From positions 1 through 64,000 of the IMG/VR virus record IMGVR_UViG_3300033120_000579: DNA of 64,000 nucleotides, one strand, 5' to 3'. The DNA comes from a virus. Its lineage: Duplodnaviria; Caudoviricetes. This document shows positions 1,191 to 11,720 of this stretch, in pieces. Numbering within the stretch: position 1 is the stretch's first letter; every line of letters begins with the position of its first letter. The notes beneath the pieces are model-generated. The model did no database searches. It was not told where the DNA came from and saw only the letters and a program-made list of their open reading frames with translations. Made by a program: the position numbers and the translations under genes.

Positions 1191-1478
1191 ATGAAAAAAT
1201 TATTAATCATATTAATATTATTATTTAGTATTAATATATATTCACAAGATACTTTATATACTGCAAAATCTATTTACAAAGGTAAATATATTACAGGATA
1301 TGTAATTGCTAAAATTACAAAAGATACAACAATATTTATTAGAATAAATAAATATAGTAAATTAAATAAAACAATTTCTTGGAAAAAACAATATAAATTA
1401 TATATTGAAAATTATCCTAAAAATTTACTTTATTTAAATGAAGAATATAGAAATAATTTAAGATCTAATAGATTATGA
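1191..1478 (+). CDS. Secreted hypothetical protein (Sec signal peptide)
   Basis: MKKLLIILILLFSINIYS|QD: signal peptide with Gln at predicted +1. Confidence 0.6.
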   Translation: MKKLLIILILLFSINIYSQDTLYTAKSIYKGKYITGYVIAKITKDTTIFIRINKYSKLNKTISWKKQYKLYIENYPKNLLYLNEEYRNNLRSNRL

Positions 1479-2008
1479 GTGAGAAAAAACAAGTGTTTCT
1501 ATCATTAGAAACTGCTAGAAAAATGTGGAAATATTATTCTGATGATGAAAATGAAGATTCACCAGGACAATTATTTCTATTAGAAAACTTCACTAAAGAA
1601 GAATTAGAAGCTAAAGAATTACCTAAAAGTTGGGAAGAATTAAACCCTATTGAAGTAGCAAAAGGTTATTATATAAATTATGATTCTAGAATTATTGTAA
1701 ATGCTAAGGGATTTGGATGTCATGAAAATAATAAAAATATATTTCCAACTAAAGAATTAGCTGAAGCATCATTAGCATTATCTCAATTATTACAATTAAG
1801 AGATAGATATAATGGTAATTGGAAAGTTGATTTAAATAATAGACCAAATGAAATTAGATACACTATTTCTAATGTATATAACAATATAACAAAAGATTAT
1901 TGTAAATCTGGAGGTAATTTAATATTATCATTTCAAAAAGAATCTATCAGAGATCAATTTATTGAAAATTTTTCTGAACTTATAAATCAAGCACTTCCAT
2001 TATTATGA
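1475..2008 (+). CDS. Hypothetical protein, distant paralog of the DGR target
   Basis: Same architecture as 3541-4035 (LLENFTKEEL vs LEETFGKEFF; LSFQKESIRDQFIENF vs FYFKDEETAKHCANKF); no TR-matching DNA. Confidence 0.55.
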   Translation: MSEKKQVFLSLETARKMWKYYSDDENEDSPGQLFLLENFTKEELEAKELPKSWEELNPIEVAKGYYINYDSRIIVNAKGFGCHENNKNIFPTKELAEASLALSQLLQLRDRYNGNWKVDLNNRPNEIRYTISNVYNNITKDYCKSGGNLILSFQKESIRDQFIENFSELINQALPLL

Positions 2009-3169: not shown

Positions 3170-3359
3170 TTATGAGTAAATCTTCAAATAAATCAAAATT
3201 AAATCAACTAATGAGTTGGTTAGAATCTAGTAAAGTAATTAAACCAATTATTACTTTATACAATTAAAATACACGTTTATTGCCGACTTGAACAAAAGTT
3301 CTCGAATAAAATGTTCCTTTATAATACGTCTTGGCTTAGGAACCATATATTTTAATAAA

Positions 3360-3423
3360 GATGAAATAGTTTAGTGTTTAAAACTGTATTTATACAACGT
3401 AGGTTGGAATCCTACAATCATCT
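3360..3423 (+). ncRNA. tRNA-like RNA with truncated anticodon arm
   Basis: GATGA/TCATC acceptor, U8-A9, GTTT/AAAC D-stem, GTAGG-TTGGAAT-CCTAC T-arm; anticodon arm only ~10 nt (GTATTTATAC). Confidence 0.5.
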
Positions 3424-3540
3424 TGTCGTAGTCTTATAGAGAGGCTTTAACAAATTATCTCTTGTAATGAGGCTCTAAGGATATATTTAAATTAATATGT
3501 CCTTATAGAGTCTTAATTAACTAAATTAAACAATATTATT

Positions 3541-4035
3541 ATGAGTAAAGATAAAATATCATTAGTAATTGATAGTTCAAAAGCTAAATTACTATATAAA
3601 AATGCAGATACATCTTTAAAAACAATTTTAGAAGAAACTTTTGGAAAAGAGTTTTTTAGTGAAAAATTAATAGATCGTATAAACACAATTGAAGATGTTT
3701 ATAAAGAATTGAATAGAAAACAACCTATACTTTCAGATTATAAATTTCTACCAGTTGAAAAAAGAGAAAAAGCAATGTGTAATCAATATGCTGAAGATAT
3801 TTCTGAAGTATTTGCTGAAGGCTTAAAATTTGATTTTACAAATTTAAATCAAAGAAAATATTATAATTGGTATGAAAAAAAACAAAACAGTTGGGTGTTG
3901 GACAGCGTCCTTTACGGCTGCCTCTGTTCGGTCTTTGTTTCTGGTTTTTACTTTAAAGACGAAGAAACAGCTAAACATTGTGCTAATAAATTCTTAGATT
4001 CTGTTTATTCAAAGGTTTTAGAACCTTTAGGTTAA
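3541..4035 (+). CDS. DGR target protein (variable protein)
   Basis: Contains VR 3889-3952 encoding SWVLDSVLYGCLCSVFVSGFY, which differs from TR only at TR adenines. Confidence 0.9.
   Translation: MSKDKISLVIDSSKAKLLYKNADTSLKTILEETFGKEFFSEKLIDRINTIEDVYKELNRKQPILSDYKFLPVEKREKAMCNQYAEDISEVFAEGLKFDFTNLNQRKYYNWYEKKQNSWVLDSVLYGCLCSVFVSGFYFKDEETAKHCANKFLDSVYSKVLEPLG
3889..3952 (+). repeat. DGR variable repeat (VR)
   Basis: 64-nt ungapped match to 4056-4119; all 43 non-A TR positions identical; 16 of 21 TR adenines substituted (9 G, 5 T, 2 C). Confidence 0.95.
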
Positions 4036-4055
4036 TATTAGAACAAGTTTTAGAA

Positions 4056-4119
4056 AGTTGAGTGTTGAACAACGTCAATTACAACTACATCAATTCGAAC
4101 TTTGATTCTAGTTATTACT
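4056..4119 (+). repeat. DGR template repeat (TR)
   Basis: Non-coding, AAC/AAT-rich in the VR frame (AAC AAC GTC AAT TAC AAC TAC ATC AAT TCG AAC), lying between target and RT. Confidence 0.95.
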
Positions 4120-4224
4120 CAAATTAAAAATTAATATTAACCCTACCTATTGGTAAAAAATGTAAAGACTTAAAAAGATATTAGTATCAGATGATGAGAA
4201 AATTTCTTACGATAAGTAAAATTA

Positions 4225-5175
4225 ATGAAACGATACAATAATTTATATAATAAAATATTTCATATGGATAACCTAATCCTAGCTGATAAAAAAGCTAGGA
4301 AAGGGAAATCTAAAAGTAAAGAAATAATTGAATTTGATAAAAATAAATATGAATATTTACAACAATTACAAAATTTATTAATTAATAAAGAATACACTAC
4401 TTCAGAATATGAAATATTTACAATTACAGATCCAAAATTAAGAGAGATATATAAATTACCATATTTTCCTGATAGAATATTACATCATGCAATTATGAAT
4501 ATTTTAGAACCTATATTTGTACAAACATTTATATCAACGACATTTAATTGTATTAAAGGTAGAGGTATTCATAAAGCTCATAAATATATTAGGAATTCTT
4601 TACAAGATATAGAAAATACTAAATATTGTTTAAAATTAGATATTAAAAAATTTTATCCTAACATAAATAATGAAATTCTAAAGTTATTGTTAAGAAAAAA
4701 ATTCAAAGACAAAGATTTATTACAATTATTGGATAATATAATTGATTCTGTTCAAGGTCAACCAATTGGAAATTATATTTCACAATTTTTTGCTAATTTT
4801 TATCTTAGTTATTTTGATCATTGGATTAAAGAAGTTTTAAAAGTAAAATATTATTGTAGATATTGTGATGATTTAGTATTTTTACATAGTGATAAAAATT
4901 ATTTAAGAAATACTTTAAAAGAAATTAAAGAGTATTTATCTATAAATCTAAAATTAGAATTAAAACATAATTACCAAATATTTCCAGTAAAATCTAGAGG
5001 TATAGATTTTGTAGGTTATAAATTTTATCATTATTATATACTATTAAGAAAATCCATTAAATATAGATATATTAAAATGATAAAACATAATTATAATTAT
5101 AAATCAATAGCATCATACAATGGATGGTTAAATCATTGTAATAGCATAAATTTAAGAAATAAATATGAAATATGA
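4225..5175 (+). CDS. DGR reverse transcriptase
   Basis: RT motifs PKLREI..LPYFPDRILHHA, CIKGRGIH, LKLDIKKFYPNI, QPIGNYISQFFAN, RYCDDL, GIDFVGY; 316 aa, no maturase or endonuclease domain. Confidence 0.95.
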   Translation: MKRYNNLYNKIFHMDNLILADKKARKGKSKSKEIIEFDKNKYEYLQQLQNLLINKEYTTSEYEIFTITDPKLREIYKLPYFPDRILHHAIMNILEPIFVQTFISTTFNCIKGRGIHKAHKYIRNSLQDIENTKYCLKLDIKKFYPNINNEILKLLLRKKFKDKDLLQLLDNIIDSVQGQPIGNYISQFFANFYLSYFDHWIKEVLKVKYYCRYCDDLVFLHSDKNYLRNTLKEIKEYLSINLKLELKHNYQIFPVKSRGIDFVGYKFYHYYILLRKSIKYRYIKMIKHNYNYKSIASYNGWLNHCNSINLRNKYEI

Positions 5176-5192
5176 ATTAAAAAATAAATAAT

Positions 5193-5435: not shown

Positions 5436-5519
5436 GCTGATGTGATGGAATGCAGACATGCAAGACTTAAACTCTTGTGAGCTTAATAGCTCGTGCCAGT
5501 TCAACTCTGGTCGTCAGTA
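5436..5519 (+). tRNA. tRNA-Leu (UAA)
   Basis: GCTGATG/CGTCAGT acceptor, CAAGA-CTTAAAC-TCTTG anticodon arm, long variable arm GAGCT..AGCTC, GCCAG-TTCAACT-CTGGT T-arm, discriminator A; CCA not encoded. Confidence 0.9.
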
Positions 5520-5576
5520 CAAACTGAATTTCATAATTTTAGTTAGCTTCTTAGGAAGTGTTTAGTTAGTTTTTAG

Positions 5577-5605
5577 ACCCTATCAGAAATGGTAGGGTTT
5601 ATTTT
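5577..5605 (+). terminator. Intrinsic terminator
   Basis: ACCCTATCA-GAAA-TGGTAGGGT followed by TTATTTT. Confidence 0.7.
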
Positions 5606-5663: not shown

Positions 5664-7304
5664 ATGAATAAAAATGAATTAAAAGAAGGAGAAATTTATA
5701 ACTATAAGATATATAATCATACATATATCATTAAATTAAATATTAAAAATAATAATCCTAAATTCAAAAATGGATTTGGTGGGAAATACGTTTTTGAATC
5801 TTCTATAAATAAAAAATTTGCAAAAGAAAGAACTATACATTATTTAGATAAAGGTGTTTTTACAAAAGCAACTCCAGAAGAAAAACATTGGTTAAATAGT
5901 TGTATTGACGCTGATAAATTTATATCTTATGAAGAAGCTATGAAATCATTTATTCCTGAATATGTTGAATGTATCAAATTATTTAGACATGATTGGAAAT
6001 TTACAATAAATAAGATATATAAATGGCCACAACCTATTGATAATGTTGGTAAAAAACATCTTGCAATTAATACTTATAAAAGTTGGATTAAATATTTCAA
6101 ACCATCAACAAAAGAAGCTTATGATGCTCAATTTAGAAAAGAAGTAATTAAAGTTAAACCTTTTGACATTGTTTCAGTAATTGGTAGATTTGGTAATGAA
6201 TTATTTTTAAATAAAGATGAATATTATAGAAATAAAGATAAAACTATTTCTGTCTATATACGTGCCAATGATTTAGATAATTATAAAATTAATTCAGTTA
6301 TCAATGAAGAAGGTAATATCTTTATGATTGGTGATATAATTACTCCATCAATAGTAGAAAGTCCTAATAAAGGTAAAGGATTTAAAATTATTGGATTTAG
6401 ACTTAATGTTGATAAATCTATGATTTGTGCTATTACTGATACACATACTCCATATGGAATTGGTATTGATAAAATAGAACATTTCATTGAAAAAGATGAA
6501 TTTGTATTACCTGAAAAATGGTATATTAAATTAACATTAGAAAATATAGAAATAATAGGAAATTGGTTTAAAATTAATAAACATCCAAAAAGTTCAACAG
6601 ATTATCATTGTTTAGATGTAAGAACAAATACTAAACCAAGATATGAAACAATTCATTATCCAGCAATAGAAAATAGATGGGGTTATTATCATGGATCATT
6701 TCGCTCAACAGATTATATAGAAATAACTTTTGACCAATTTAAAAAATATGTTTTAAAAGAAGAAAATAAATCTAATTTAGAAATTCATAATGAAAAAGTA
6801 CTATCAATTTTACCTTTACAAAGTGAAAGAAGATCTGCTGTTATAACTGAAAGTCATGTAGATCAACTAAGATTAAAAGAGGTTGAAATAGATTCTATAG
6901 TTATACCTAATGAAACTTTATTAGAAAAAGCTAAAAGATTATATCCTATTGGAACTAAAATAAAAAGCGCAATTAGTAATTATACTGGAACAATTATTGA
7001 ATTTCCTAAAGAACCTTTAAACAGTAATAACAATATAGTTGTAAATGTTAATAATTCAAATAGTCCTTCTAATATGATATATCTTTACAAATATAATAGA
7101 TGGGCTACAATTATTGAGGATAAACCTAAAGTTGGTGATAAATTTACTATACCTACCAAATCAACTAGCTATAACAATAATATTACTTTTAATGAAAATA
7201 GTATATTTAAAATTCATTCTATCGAAAATAATATTGTTAAATTTATTGGTGGATATGATACAATTGAAACAGTTTTACTCAAAAATATAAAAATTGTTAA
7301 ATAA
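5664..7304 (+). CDS. Mosaic multi-module hypothetical protein
   Basis: 546 aa of short modules; YKINSVINEEGNIFMIGD shared with 7858-8640. Confidence 0.7.
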   Translation: MNKNELKEGEIYNYKIYNHTYIIKLNIKNNNPKFKNGFGGKYVFESSINKKFAKERTIHYLDKGVFTKATPEEKHWLNSCIDADKFISYEEAMKSFIPEYVECIKLFRHDWKFTINKIYKWPQPIDNVGKKHLAINTYKSWIKYFKPSTKEAYDAQFRKEVIKVKPFDIVSVIGRFGNELFLNKDEYYRNKDKTISVYIRANDLDNYKINSVINEEGNIFMIGDIITPSIVESPNKGKGFKIIGFRLNVDKSMICAITDTHTPYGIGIDKIEHFIEKDEFVLPEKWYIKLTLENIEIIGNWFKINKHPKSSTDYHCLDVRTNTKPRYETIHYPAIENRWGYYHGSFRSTDYIEITFDQFKKYVLKEENKSNLEIHNEKVLSILPLQSERRSAVITESHVDQLRLKEVEIDSIVIPNETLLEKAKRLYPIGTKIKSAISNYTGTIIEFPKEPLNSNNNIVVNVNNSNSPSNMIYLYKYNRWATIIEDKPKVGDKFTIPTKSTSYNNNITFNENSIFKIHSIENNIVKFIGGYDTIETVLLKNIKIVK

Positions 7305-7780
7305 TGGCTCAAGATACTAAAATATATTTAAAATTAAATAAAAGACCTAAAAATGTTGCAGAACTAATTGATAAATTATGGTCAGAACCTTATGATAAAT
7401 CAGTTGAAACATATCATAATAAAGAATGTACAATTAAACAATGTGCATCTTATAAAAATAGAAGTTTTGATGATTTTTATTATTTGTGTAAAACCTATTT
7501 TCCAAATGTAACTCCTAAAAAAGTATTTCATGAATTAATTATTTCTAATAGAAATAATAAAATTATAGCATGTTCACATTGTGAAACTATTAGAAAAACT
7601 ACAATATTTTTTTATGATTATAAACAATTAGTTTATGCATGGGTTAATATTTATATTTATAATATAAAAATGAATAAATATAACTCTAAATATTCATGGG
7701 AAGAATTATATCATTTATTAAATATTCATAGTAATGAAGATTTGATTGCTTATAGAGAAAAATATAATATAAAATTATAA
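7304..7780 (+). CDS. Hypothetical protein, RS-xx-D/KTYFP paralog family member 1
   Basis: ETYHNKEC..QC..NRSFDD..CKTYFP..CETIRK. Confidence 0.7.
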   Translation: MAQDTKIYLKLNKRPKNVAELIDKLWSEPYDKSVETYHNKECTIKQCASYKNRSFDDFYYLCKTYFPNVTPKKVFHELIISNRNNKIIACSHCETIRKTTIFFYDYKQLVYAWVNIYIYNIKMNKYNSKYSWEELYHLLNIHSNEDLIAYREKYNIKL

Positions 7781-7857
7781 ATTATGAAAGAACAACATTA
7801 TTTAGATTCCATGCAAGAAGATTGGATGGATGGAGATAAAGATTTATACATATCATC

Positions 7858-8640
7858 ATGAAAAGGTATAAACTCATAAAAACTTATCCAGATTCTCCTA
7901 AATTAGGATATATTTTAGAACAAAAATCTGGTAGTGTAGATTGTGAAAATTATCCAGAATTTTGGGAATTAGTTGTTGAAAAAGAATTTGAAGTATTAAG
8001 TTTTATATATAATAATAAAACATTAAAATTTAGTGAAAATCAAAATTGTTTTATATATGAACCATATGATGGATATAATCATCGACAATTAGATTTTTTA
8101 TTAAGAAATTCAAATGTTTACAAAATTCATTCAGTTAAAAGATTATCAGATGGTGAAATATTTACTATTGGTGATGAAATTGATTTAACAAAATATGAGT
8201 TTAATTTTCCTAAATCAGATATATTAACAGAAATAAAAATTATTGATAATAAAATTAGATTTAAAATGAATTTTCAAGAAAAACATGATTGGAATTCATC
8301 TTATACTTTAGATTATATTCAAAAACTTAAACAACGATTATTCACAACTGAAGATGGAGTTGATGTTTTTGAAGGTGATAATTATGTAATAGTAGATAAT
8401 AAAGATTGGTATATAGACAGTACAGGTGGAAAAAATTTAAATGAAAAAGATTATAGACTTTATTTCTCAACAAAAGAAAAAGCTGAAGAATATATTGTTT
8501 TAAATAAACCTTGTTTAAGTTTTAATGAAGTATATTCATTATTAGGTAAATTATCAACCGCTGCTTTAAGACAATCTGATTATCAATCTTTAAATACAAA
8601 ATTAAAACAAATAGTTAAAAATAAATTAAAAATTAAATAA
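7858..8640 (+). CDS. Mosaic hypothetical protein
   Basis: YKIHSVKRLSDGEIFTIGD module shared with 5664-7304. Confidence 0.7.
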   Translation: MKRYKLIKTYPDSPKLGYILEQKSGSVDCENYPEFWELVVEKEFEVLSFIYNNKTLKFSENQNCFIYEPYDGYNHRQLDFLLRNSNVYKIHSVKRLSDGEIFTIGDEIDLTKYEFNFPKSDILTEIKIIDNKIRFKMNFQEKHDWNSSYTLDYIQKLKQRLFTTEDGVDVFEGDNYVIVDNKDWYIDSTGGKNLNEKDYRLYFSTKEKAEEYIVLNKPCLSFNEVYSLLGKLSTAALRQSDYQSLNTKLKQIVKNKLKIK

Positions 8641-9839: not shown

Positions 9840-11720
9840 ATGAGAAAGGAATTATATGATATAGAAGTTTTTAAAAACTTCTTCTGCGTTGGTATAAGAA
9901 ATTATAATACCAAAGAATTAGTATTTTATGAAATATCTGAAGAAAAAAATGATTTAGATTTAATTTATAAATGGTTTAATGAATTTGATGGATTTTTAAT
10001 TAGTTTTAATGGAATACATTATGATAATATGGTTATCAAATATTTTATTAAAAATTATAATAAATATAAAAATTGGAATTGGTCTAATATTACATTAGAT
10101 TTAAAAGCTTTTTCTGATAAAATAATTTATAGTGATATTTATGATGACGAAATTAAACAAATTAAATATTTTAAAACTAAATGGATTGATATAGATTTAT
10201 TTTTATATTGGTCTAAAATGTTAAGAATGTCTAAAAAGATTAGTTTAAAATCATTAGGTATTCAATTAGGTTATCATACAGTACAAGAATTACCATACCA
10301 ACATGATTTTATTTTAACAATAGAAGATTTACCTAAATTACGTTATTATAATTATACACATGATTTAGGAATCTTAGATTTATTAACTTCTAAAATGGAA
10401 GATGATATTAAATTAAGAGCAAATATTGTTAAAGAATATAATATTAATTGTTGGTCAATGGATGCTACAAAAATTGCTTCTGAAGCATTATTGTTAGATT
10501 ATTGTAGAATTACTAATAAAAATCCTTTTGAAGTAAGAAAACAAAGATTTCAACGTAATACTATTTATCTAAATGAAGTTTTAAAAGGATTTAATCCTGA
10601 ATTTAAATTACCAATATTTCAAAATTTATGGGCAGAAATATTAAATTCTAAAGATAAATTTAGCAAAGAACTTATAATTAATCATAACAATACTTCAATT
10701 AGATTAACTTATGGAGTTGGTGGATTGCATTCTATAAATGAAAATGAGCAATATTATACTAGTGAGAATTTTAAAGTCATAACAAGTGATGTTGCTTCAT
10801 TATATCCAAATCTAATTATTAATTATAAATGCATTAGGTTTCCTGAAGTTCTTAATAAGTATATTCAAGTAAAAGATGAAAGAATTATTGCTAAAAAAGC
10901 TAAAGAAAAACAAAAAGATACATTCTTTAAATTAATTTTAAATTCAACATCTGGATTATTAGATATGGAACATGGGTGGTTATATTATCCTGAAGGTGCA
11001 ATGAGAATGCGTTTAATTGGTCAATTAATATTAACTAAATGTATTGAAGTATGTCTAATTAATAATTGGCAAGTTATTTCAGCAAATACTGATGGTATTG
11101 AAGTAATTGTTCCTACATATCAAAGAAAACAATATCAAGAACTTTTAAATATTACTTGTTCTAAATTTAATCTAGAATTAGAACATGAAGAATATGAAAA
11201 AATTATTTATAAAAATGTTAATAATTATATTGCGAAAACATTAGTTGGTGATATTAAACGTAAAGGTTTATTCAAACTACCGTTTAATGAAAAAGGTCAA
11301 AAAGAAATTCCTTTAGGAGATTCTACAGATGAATTAGTTATTTCTAAAGCATTACATAATTATTATATTCATAATATTAAACCTGAAGAATTTATATCTA
11401 ATCCTGATAAATATGAATTACATCCATTTGATTACTGTAAAAGTAATAAGATAGGTAAAGATTTTAAAGTTTATCATAATGGTCAAATTCAACAGCAATT
11501 AAATAGATATTATTTTAGTAAAAATGCTCCATATTTATTTAAACAAAAAAATGGAGTTGGAACAATGCAACATGTTAATGTCGGAGAAGGTATAATCTTA
11601 TTTAATGATTATGAAAAAAAAAATTGGAAAGATTATAATATAAATTATAAATATTATATTAGTAAAACTAATAAAATTATAGAAGAAATCAATAGATTAA
11701 ATCAATTAAGCTTATTTTAA
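9840..11720 (+). CDS. polB: Family B DNA polymerase
   Basis: Exo YDIE and FNGIHYD; Pol motifs DVASLYPN, KLILNSTSG, ANTDG, KRKG. Confidence 0.92.
   Translation: MRKELYDIEVFKNFFCVGIRNYNTKELVFYEISEEKNDLDLIYKWFNEFDGFLISFNGIHYDNMVIKYFIKNYNKYKNWNWSNITLDLKAFSDKIIYSDIYDDEIKQIKYFKTKWIDIDLFLYWSKMLRMSKKISLKSLGIQLGYHTVQELPYQHDFILTIEDLPKLRYYNYTHDLGILDLLTSKMEDDIKLRANIVKEYNINCWSMDATKIASEALLLDYCRITNKNPFEVRKQRFQRNTIYLNEVLKGFNPEFKLPIFQNLWAEILNSKDKFSKELIINHNNTSIRLTYGVGGLHSINENEQYYTSENFKVITSDVASLYPNLIINYKCIRFPEVLNKYIQVKDERIIAKKAKEKQKDTFFKLILNSTSGLLDMEHGWLYYPEGAMRMRLIGQLILTKCIEVCLINNWQVISANTDGIEVIVPTYQRKQYQELLNITCSKFNLELEHEEYEKIIYKNVNNYIAKTLVGDIKRKGLFKLPFNEKGQKEIPLGDSTDELVISKALHNYYIHNIKPEEFISNPDKYELHPFDYCKSNKIGKDFKVYHNGQIQQQLNRYYFSKNAPYLFKQKNGVGTMQHVNVGEGIILFNDYEKKNWKDYNINYKYYISKTNKIIEEINRLNQLSLF

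Follow-up and report, generated by a model that had tools for sequence, protein, structure and literature searches.

In the field's working picture, diversity-generating retroelements (DGRs) of phages tune receptor-binding tail proteins that are built on C-type lectin folds, and in the DGR of Bordetella phage BPP-1 the reverse transcriptase (RT) is inactive without the accessory protein Avd. DGRs of Architecture A, which have no accessory gene, make up 29% of the catalogued DGRs, lineage 3 is without avd, and genomes with Avd-less DGRs did not reveal a remote avd gene (Wu et al., 2018, PMC5758913). The DGRs described so far from crAss-like phages are also mostly Avd-less (PMC7290462; PMC12386605). 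With regard to RNA elements, the RT-10 motif was found in the spacer between the template repeat (TR) and the RT gene of BPP-1, and other RT motifs have been proposed for DGRs (Weinberg, 2017, PMC5737381). Among the targets, PC_00007 'Phage_other' is a viral, clade-1 target cluster from the Fibrobacteres-Chlorobi-Bacteroidetes (FCB) group, in which the variable repeat (VR) is located at 0.72-0.77 of the protein and of whose members only 1.6% were predicted to be structural by PhANNs; VR domains without assignment were assumed to be probably new C-type lectin fold variants (Roux et al., 2021, PMC8144416). Here, we describe a cassette at positions 3541-5175 of the virus record IMGVR_UViG_3300033120_000579, of which the first 64,000 nucleotides were analyzed as one stretch (referred to as the window). 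With a probability of roughly 0.78, we read this cassette as an intact, recently active, Avd-less 'target-TR-RT' DGR of the type known from Bacteroidota phages. Its target most likely works inside the cell, at odds only somewhat better than even. The analysis establishes the anatomy of the cassette, its adenine-specific mismatch pattern, the kinship of the RT, covariation in the spacer RNA, the lack of Avd, the membership of the target in a known target family, and the recurrence of the arrangement together with related RTs.

Results

The source virus record is complete and comprises 102,862 bp with 24% G+C, whereby the window represents its first 64 kb. The cassette has a total length of 1635 nt, is organized on the plus strand in the order target-VR-TR-RT, and consists of the following features:

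3541-4035, plus strand: DGR target gene, an open reading frame (ORF) of 164 aa from the PC_00007 'Phage_other' family
3889-3952, plus strand: VR, corresponding to codons 117-138 of the target, which encode strand 2 of the predicted hairpin and the loop after it
3943-3952 at the 3' end of the VR (GGTTTTTACT) versus 4110-4119 at the end of the TR (AGTTATTACT), plus strand: candidate pair resembling the initiation of mutagenic homing elements (IMH/IMH*), inferred from a codon-wise TR/VR comparison of 16 pairs
4056-4119, plus strand: TR, non-coding
4139-4212, plus strand: structured spacer RNA, from a sub-threshold match to Rfam RT-17 and covariation
4225-5175, plus strand: DGR reverse transcriptase, an ORF of 316 aa with matches to RVT_1 and phrog_1423 and the motifs IGNYISQ and YCDD

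VR and TR are both 64 nt long and align without gaps. A repeat search and a comparison by script yielded identity at each of the 43 non-A positions, whereas the VR differs at 16 of the 21 TR adenines (nine A>G, five A>T, and two A>C). If the 16 mismatches were placed by chance, all of them would coincide with the 21 adenines with a probability of C(21,16)/C(64,16) = 4.2e-11. Almost all of the TR adenines (20 of 21) represent the first or second base of a codon, and most of these codons are AAY. The VR lies in the 3' part of the target ORF and is internal, since 27 further codons of the target follow 3' of it, whereas the TR is non-coding and adjoins the RT gene on the same strand. The only ORF-free gaps within the cassette measure 20 nt (4036-4055) and 105 nt (4120-4224), and thus there is no space for a further ORF between target, TR, and RT. 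A preliminary description of this stretch had claimed a 64-nt TR/VR pair with all 43 non-A positions identical and 16 of 21 adenines changed, an internal VR, and a cassette of about 1.6 kb without room for avd, all of which is borne out by these data. When both strands of the entire genome were scanned for TR-like sequences with any change at A allowed, only the known VR was matched and no second one was revealed.

For comparison, 40 related loci were retrieved, which come from crAss-like and other phages as well as from genomes of Bacteroidota (individual loci are referred to by numbers with the prefix L). In most of them, the target family is diversified by related RTs. The search was carried out with a narrow alignment (A1), since a wide alignment (A2) had no sufficiently conserved stretch, and its outcome is biased towards motif-bearing members. 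The TR of the window carries in-frame stops, including a TGA opposite the codon for Trp118 of the target, and in the register-aligned TRs of the crAss clade, namely those of the window, L003, L004, L005, L007, and L012, either TGA or TAG is found opposite the invariant VR Trp codon. In the five crAss-clade relatives among these (L003, L004, L005, L007, and L012), the TR has AGT opposite a conserved VR Gly codon. The last 10 nt show fixed differences between VR and TR, one of which is a non-A change in 4 loci, and may be regarded as a candidate pair of the IMH/IMH* type.

The full-length RT ORF matches Pfam RVT_1 (2.5e-14) as well as the phage RT family phrog_1423 (1e-112). With IGNYISQ and YCDD, it contains both motifs of the DGR clade (IGxxxSQ and YxDD). 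Over the full length, its closest solved relative is 8ub7_A (E 5.9e-40), followed by group II intron RTs as the next class at 1e-14. The depositors label entry 8ub7 as 'Reverse transcriptase' only; we take it to be the DGR RT of Bordetella phage BPP-1. Profiles of retron RTs, defense-associated RTs (DRTs), group II RTs, and generic RTs match the protein weakly, and the NCBIfam matches are all far below their cut-offs. The RTs of the crAss-clade cassettes (window, L004, L012, and L021) form a supported clade (100/99) in an RT tree that is poorly resolved otherwise (2 of 9 forks supported, rows of L001 and L004 truncated) and was used for this grouping only. All of these four RTs have YCDD, whereas all other related RTs have YADD.

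The spacer between TR and RT gene matches the Rfam family RT-17 (RF03020) at 4139-4212 with 24.3 bits, and RT-17 matches with 26.4-36.4 bits are present at the same position, directly upstream of the RT gene, in six related loci. The helices in the spacer are formed by 4144-4147/4152-4155, 4175-4182/4201-4208, and 4187-4188/4196-4197, with an A-run located 3' of the first hairpin. Single-sequence folding of the TR-RT intergenic RNA gave z = 0.06, and the structure becomes visible only by comparison. In an alignment of 12 spacers, a structure of 13 pairs was obtained with compensatory changes in 12 of the 13 pairs, whereby paired cells amounted to 91.7% compared to 75.3% in shuffles (0 of 500 reached the observed value) and 39-50% when the partners were slid against each other. 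We infer that, within the cassette, this RNA might serve both as scaffold and as primer element.

With respect to helper genes, the Avd profiles PF05635 and TIGR02436 gave no match at E <= 10 when the complete genome of 102.9 kb was searched, and Avd-type families do match in Bacteroides thetaiotaomicron among the control genomes. The preliminary description had proposed to search the rest of the genome for avd and additional VRs; in the complete genome, neither was found. Outside the crAss clade, there is a conserved ORF of about 100 aa directly 3' of the RT gene, which occurs in L013-L019 as well as in all but one of the 17 RT-bearing Bacteroidota genome loci. This ORF lies immediately next to the stop codon of the RT gene or overlaps with it (e.g., L014:8041-8358, L018:5902-6213, and L019:5184-5483), has no Pfam match, and is a candidate accessory protein of this RT clade. 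No homolog of it was detected in the genome of the window by tblastn or by a profile search that was run without a positive control. The ORF is also missing from the other crAss-clade cassettes, and within the cassettes of the window, L004, L012, and L021 the RNA is the sole conserved neighbor. Overall, the cassette fits the Avd-less Architecture A1 with the order target-TR-RT and without an accessory gene, whereas an avd gene in the cassette or elsewhere in the genome, as expected for the classical Avd-dependent Architecture B, was not found.

The same arrangement recurs in related loci. The five closest homologs (50-55% identical) all show the order target-VR-TR-RT with 13-17 A-only mismatches, although the RT frame of L006 is divided between two ORFs. 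In 7 close loci, the VR codons vary as NNC/NNT and the flanks are conserved. The rest of the gene is 66-86% identical among relatives. A-only VR/TR pairs are present in 9 of 10 IMG/VR loci, all nine of which have an RT, and in 21 of 25 Bacteroidota genome loci, where an RT with 50-62% identity was found within the fetched stretch in 17 of the 25. The 25 genome loci are all from Bacteroidota, including Bacteroidales, Chitinophagaceae, Dyadobacter, Flavobacterium, and Pedobacter. In the IMG/VR and Bacteroidota relatives, there are usually two to four copies of the family for each TR. Neither an A-only pair nor a TR spacer is seen in two distant members, which are located on short contigs. Recent activity of the cassette in the window is suggested by the intact RT, the complete lack of non-A differences, and the intact RNA helices, given that the rest of the gene is so much less identical among relatives. 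The DGR is real and well-formed, and its activity is probable.

Some of the related loci have features of their own. In L012, a 94-kb crAss-like contig from IMG/VR, the region 5989-8094 is organized as target-TR-RT-target2-TR2, so that one RT is accompanied by two modules, each with A-only mismatches, whereby target2 (131 aa) is an N-terminally truncated paralog. L005 contains a tmRNA-like match at 3949-4385 on the plus strand with 37.1 bits, which is below the gathering score of 47 (E 2.6e-11). In L018, the target adjoins two DNA methyltransferases. Second VRs near counter-defense genes have been described for Bacteroidota prophages in a 2025 study (PMC12629997), and L018 looks similar.

No Pfam, NCBIfam, or PADLOC family could be assigned to the target, and a tblastn search against 50,697 GenBank phage records gave no match. 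Weak matches to Pfam DUF5482 and DUF2532 (E 0.002-0.007, below the cut-offs) and to PADLOC PDC-M11A (E 0.0056) were treated as noise. The target family consists of 551 representative clusters, nearly all of 150-190 aa. The family profile aligns to the C-terminal 77 aa of IMG gene 2523836780, a PC_00007 member, with an hhalign probability of 99.0% (E 7.7e-18), and the PC_00007 member sequences in Supplementary Data 8 of Roux et al. visibly belong to the same family. The VR of the target covers residues 117-137 and spans 0.71-0.84 of the 164-aa length, which agrees with the PC_00007 VR position at about three quarters of the protein. For the IMG genes 2510129634 and 2519885451, Supplementary Data 8 also shows a 194-aa PC_00007 member with a lectin-type VR ('LVLWGG...GSRLA') that is the same as in the tail-fiber target of the same DGR. 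Thus, the PC_00007 scaffold can accommodate a VR of greater length that occurs in a fiber as well.

An AlphaFold2 (AF2) model of the target reached a mean predicted local distance difference test (pLDDT) score of 92.3, and a second, independent model, made for the 30%-identical relative from L019, reached 92. Both models share one topology, which is predicted to consist of N-terminal helices, a long helix, a beta-hairpin (residues 106-126 in the target), a variable loop (127-137 in the target), and a C-terminal helix (141-160 in the target). The VR blocks are the parts with the lowest confidence in the second half of the model and, at the same time, the most variable columns of the family. With these two confident models, no match to a solved structure was obtained, C-type lectins included, and searches of BFVD and the ESM Atlas matched only uncharacterized phage proteins from crAss-like and other phages. 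Moreover, no Pfam domain of the lectin-type DGR targets was found in the target or in any of 91 family members. The C-type lectin-like fold for which the preliminary description had suggested a structure prediction was not recognized in either model. On the basis of the models, the fold of the target family is not recognizably that of a C-type lectin, and the models, which are predictions rather than structures, do not support the assumption of a C-type lectin variant for PC_00007. A kinship of the target family to the tail-collar fiber of crAssphage LMMB was also considered and rejected, since hhalign gave 0.4% and only the 'GSG(F/Y)(Y/F)F' end of the VR aligns.

By eye, neither a signal peptide nor a transmembrane segment was recognized in the 164-aa target, which is in line with the preliminary description, and the longer family members have no secretion signals and no anchoring, immunoglobulin (Ig), or fiber-like extensions. 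Together with its genomic position (see below), the target most likely, at somewhat better than even odds, binds a ligand and acts within infected cells and not on the virion. The preliminary description had proposed such an intracellular role, for example that of a host-takeover or anti-defense adaptor; the intracellular role is plausible, and the adaptor function is conjectural.

Genomic Context

The genes on the plus strand extend from about 97 kb across the start of the record to 43 kb and include the DNA polymerase gene at 9840-11720. They are followed by a minus-strand block at 43-96.8 kb (start at 43.1 kb), which encodes giant virion proteins and the large terminase. The large terminase is at most 42% identical to terminases of crAss-like phages (e.g., cr85_1 and IAS virus), which suggests that the phage is a divergent member of the Crassvirales. 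The target gene belongs to the replication arm, with a distance of 4.6 kb to the DNA polymerase gene, upstream of which it is located. The preliminary description had placed it about 40 kb away from the structural block. This distance is correct for the linear map, with the near end of the block at 43.1 kb, but the other end of the block at about 96.8 kb would be only about 9.5 kb away if the ends of the record are joined. Two more features outside of the cassette are listed here:

1475-2008, plus strand: undiversified paralog of the target family, 177 aa, from hhalign and profile matches
5574-5601, plus strand: terminator-like hairpin of 12 pairs, located 3' of a 76-aa ORF and a tRNA-Leu gene

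The paralog lies 1.5 kb upstream of the target (hhalign 93%, E 3.5e-7; profile E 2.9e-4) and is without diversification, as there is no TR-like match in the genome outside the VR. Downstream of the cassette, tRNA-Leu(taa) is located at 5436-5520 on the plus strand, followed by the hairpin, at which the transcription unit with the cassette probably ends. A tRNA-like element is located directly upstream of the target at 3360-3423 on the plus strand, within an ORF-free leader (3170-3540). It scores 30.4 bits with the Rfam tRNA model, compared to a gathering score of 29, and ARAGORN makes no call for it. A contig from the public run X2 covers 3347-3516 with about 85% identity. Matches in a scan for sigma-70 promoters were no more frequent than in shuffled sequences. 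In a 3.2-kb contig from a public run other than the one that contains the phage, position 3516 is joined to position 5185 with 236 unrelated letters in between, as found in a low-stringency alignment, and the right flank shows 2 differences in 116 nt. This contig suggests a relative that is without exactly the cassette, so that the cassette seems to behave as a gain/loss module.

Discussion

In the mechanism that we propose, the plus-strand unit would be transcribed through target, TR, spacer, and RT gene. The RT would bind the TR together with the RT-17-like structured spacer RNA and, by analogy to BPP-1, would use the spacer RNA for priming. The resulting cDNA would then replace the VR, whereby the transfer probably takes its direction from the 3' end of about 10 nt, in which VR and TR are not the same. 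In this way, about 10-13 codons would be recoded in the beta-strand and loop of a 164-aa soluble protein, and according to our own count, the six AAY codons and four single-A core codons alone would allow about 3e9 variants. As a tentative extension, which we hold with clearly less confidence than the intracellular role of the target itself, the target family may represent a second scaffold for DGR hypermutation that is not of the C-type lectin type and acts inside the cell, for example as a reprogrammable binder of variable host defense proteins or other host proteins, and the crAss cassette may represent a minimal system of RT and TR-spacer RNA that needs neither Avd nor the companion of about 100 aa.

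Several points weigh against the interpretation of the cassette as an active DGR with an intracellular target. It is puzzling that the TR has adenines at the codons of conserved Gly and Trp residues, among them an in-frame stop, as this would render many cDNA copies non-functional. For the templated stop codon, the sole explanations that we can offer are that there may be selection on the outcomes or that the 5' boundary of the transfer may usually be located downstream of the stop. Beyond the last 10 nt, no clear longer element is shared at the 3' ends of VR and TR that would extend the IMH/IMH* pair. The RT-17 scores in all 7 loci are below the Rfam gathering score of 40.4. The population data come from one public run with contigs at only about 10x, and these contain a single version of the VR. 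Furthermore, the evidence on location and function of the target is indirect, and Roux et al. point out that clusters without annotation might consist of structural proteins that are as yet uncharacterized (PMC8144416).

The latter caution leads to the question whether the target could be a virion-associated or extracellular binder, such as an accessory adhesin or a decoration protein, so that the DGR would tune the attachment to host or mucus. All phage DGR targets that are understood experimentally are receptor-binding proteins (PMC8144416; PMC7290462), and there are phages in which one TR serves both a PC_00007 member and a tail-fiber target (Supplementary Data 8). We nevertheless consider such a role rather doubtful, because the gene is located on the replication arm outside the virion block, neither the target nor the longer members have an anchoring, fiber, or Ig domain or a signal peptide, hardly any PC_00007 members are called structural by PhANNs, and the targets in other phages adjoin genes for a DNA methyltransferase, the terminase small subunit, or replication. 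Regarding the RT, it might be that the enzyme depends on a helper in trans, be it Avd or the companion of about 100 aa from a co-resident prophage or a nucleic-acid chaperone of the host, in which case the cassette would not be autonomous. This would be in accordance with the Avd dependence of the BPP-1 enzyme, with the ORF kept behind the RT gene in nearly all RT-bearing Bacteroidota genome loci of the same RT clade, and with the matches of Avd-type families in B. thetaiotaomicron. However, the crAss-clade cassettes have no conserved neighbor besides the RNA, and genomes with Avd-less DGRs were found to contain no remote avd (PMC5758913), which makes a helper in trans unlikely, and the cassette may well function independently of it.

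It could also be that the cassette is a recently inactivated relic and the VR a frozen record of past mutagenesis. Besides the single VR version in the contigs of about 10x, this idea finds some backing in the incomplete or silent cassettes that are common in Alpha crAss-like phages (PMC7290462), in the one relative that appears to be without the whole cassette, and in the split RT ORF of L006. Set against the full-length RT ORF with its catalytic motifs, the identity at all 43 non-A positions despite 66-86% identity in the rest of the gene among relatives, and the intact helices of the spacer RNA, a relic appears very improbable. Finally, a direct repeat that arose by chance or duplication beside an unrelated RT, such as that of a retron, a group II intron, or a defense system, would only be suggested by the weak matches of the RT to generic RT, DRT, and retron profiles. 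This explanation is effectively refuted by the A-only mismatches (p of about 4e-11), by the same pattern in about 35 independent loci, and by the RT, which is far closer to 8ub7 than to any other solved RT and has NCBIfam matches far below the cut-offs only.

Thus, we favor the reading as an Avd-less DGR with an intracellular target. As an observation, this is not new. The preliminary description had presented the combination of an Avd-less DGR and a non-virion target as novel, a claim that cannot be upheld, since Avd-less DGRs and PC_00007 are already catalogued (PMC5758913; PMC7290462; PMC12386605; Roux et al., 2021, PMC8144416), and the matter is hinted at in PMC12629997. The value of the locus is that of a clean minimal example, which sharpens the questions of the fold and function of the target and of the action of an RT without a helper. 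In contrast to the working picture of tail proteins on C-type lectin folds, the target family is common in Bacteroidota phages, small, encoded among replication and DNA-modification genes, and predicted to have a fold without a solved relative. If the target acts inside the cell, DGRs would also serve in an intracellular arms race, and the family would provide a compact natural scaffold for programmable binders. The helper-less 1.6-kb crAss cassette with its one target would be the simplest natural version for Avd-independent mutagenic retrohoming.

Comparison With Known Systems

With the DGR of Bordetella phage BPP-1 (mtd-avd-TR-brt), the cassette shares the adenine-specific transfer from TR to VR. 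It differs in that Avd is missing, the target is neither a tail fiber nor a recognizable C-type lectin, there is no long GC-rich IMH, and the VR is followed by a 27-codon helix. The spacer RNA resembles the Rfam family RF03020 RT-17 RNA (Weinberg et al., 2017) in its place directly upstream of the RT gene, whereby model positions 1-95 are matched in 7 loci, but all scores of 24-36 bits are below 40.4, so that it is to be considered a divergent relative and not a curated member. The crAss-like DGRs, namely those of crAssphage LMMB (PMC7290462), Zeta crAss-like phages (PMC12386605), and cr115_1, have the same order target-VR-TR-RT without avd and RTs that are 47-57% identical to that of the window. 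The RT of LMMB, which its authors placed in lineage 3, is 47% identical (PMC7290462), and both LMMB and cr115_1 have an RT-17-like spacer as in the window. The targets of these DGRs, however, are long tail-fiber or tail-collar proteins that are encoded where the structural block ends and were modeled with C-type lectin domains, whereas the target in the window has 164 aa, is located on the replication arm, and shows no detectable relation to the LMMB fiber (hhalign 0.4%). Closest are the PC_00007 DGRs (Roux et al., 2021, Nat Commun 12:3076; clade 1, FCB/Bacteroidota viruses), which have the same target family, an RT of the same clade (50-62%), and a non-structural genomic setting. These relatives mostly carry 2-4 targets per TR, full-length and N-terminally truncated, as well as the ORF of about 100 aa behind the RT gene, whereas the cassette in the window has one target and no companion, resides in a divergent crAss-like genome, and encodes an RT with YCDD instead of YADD.

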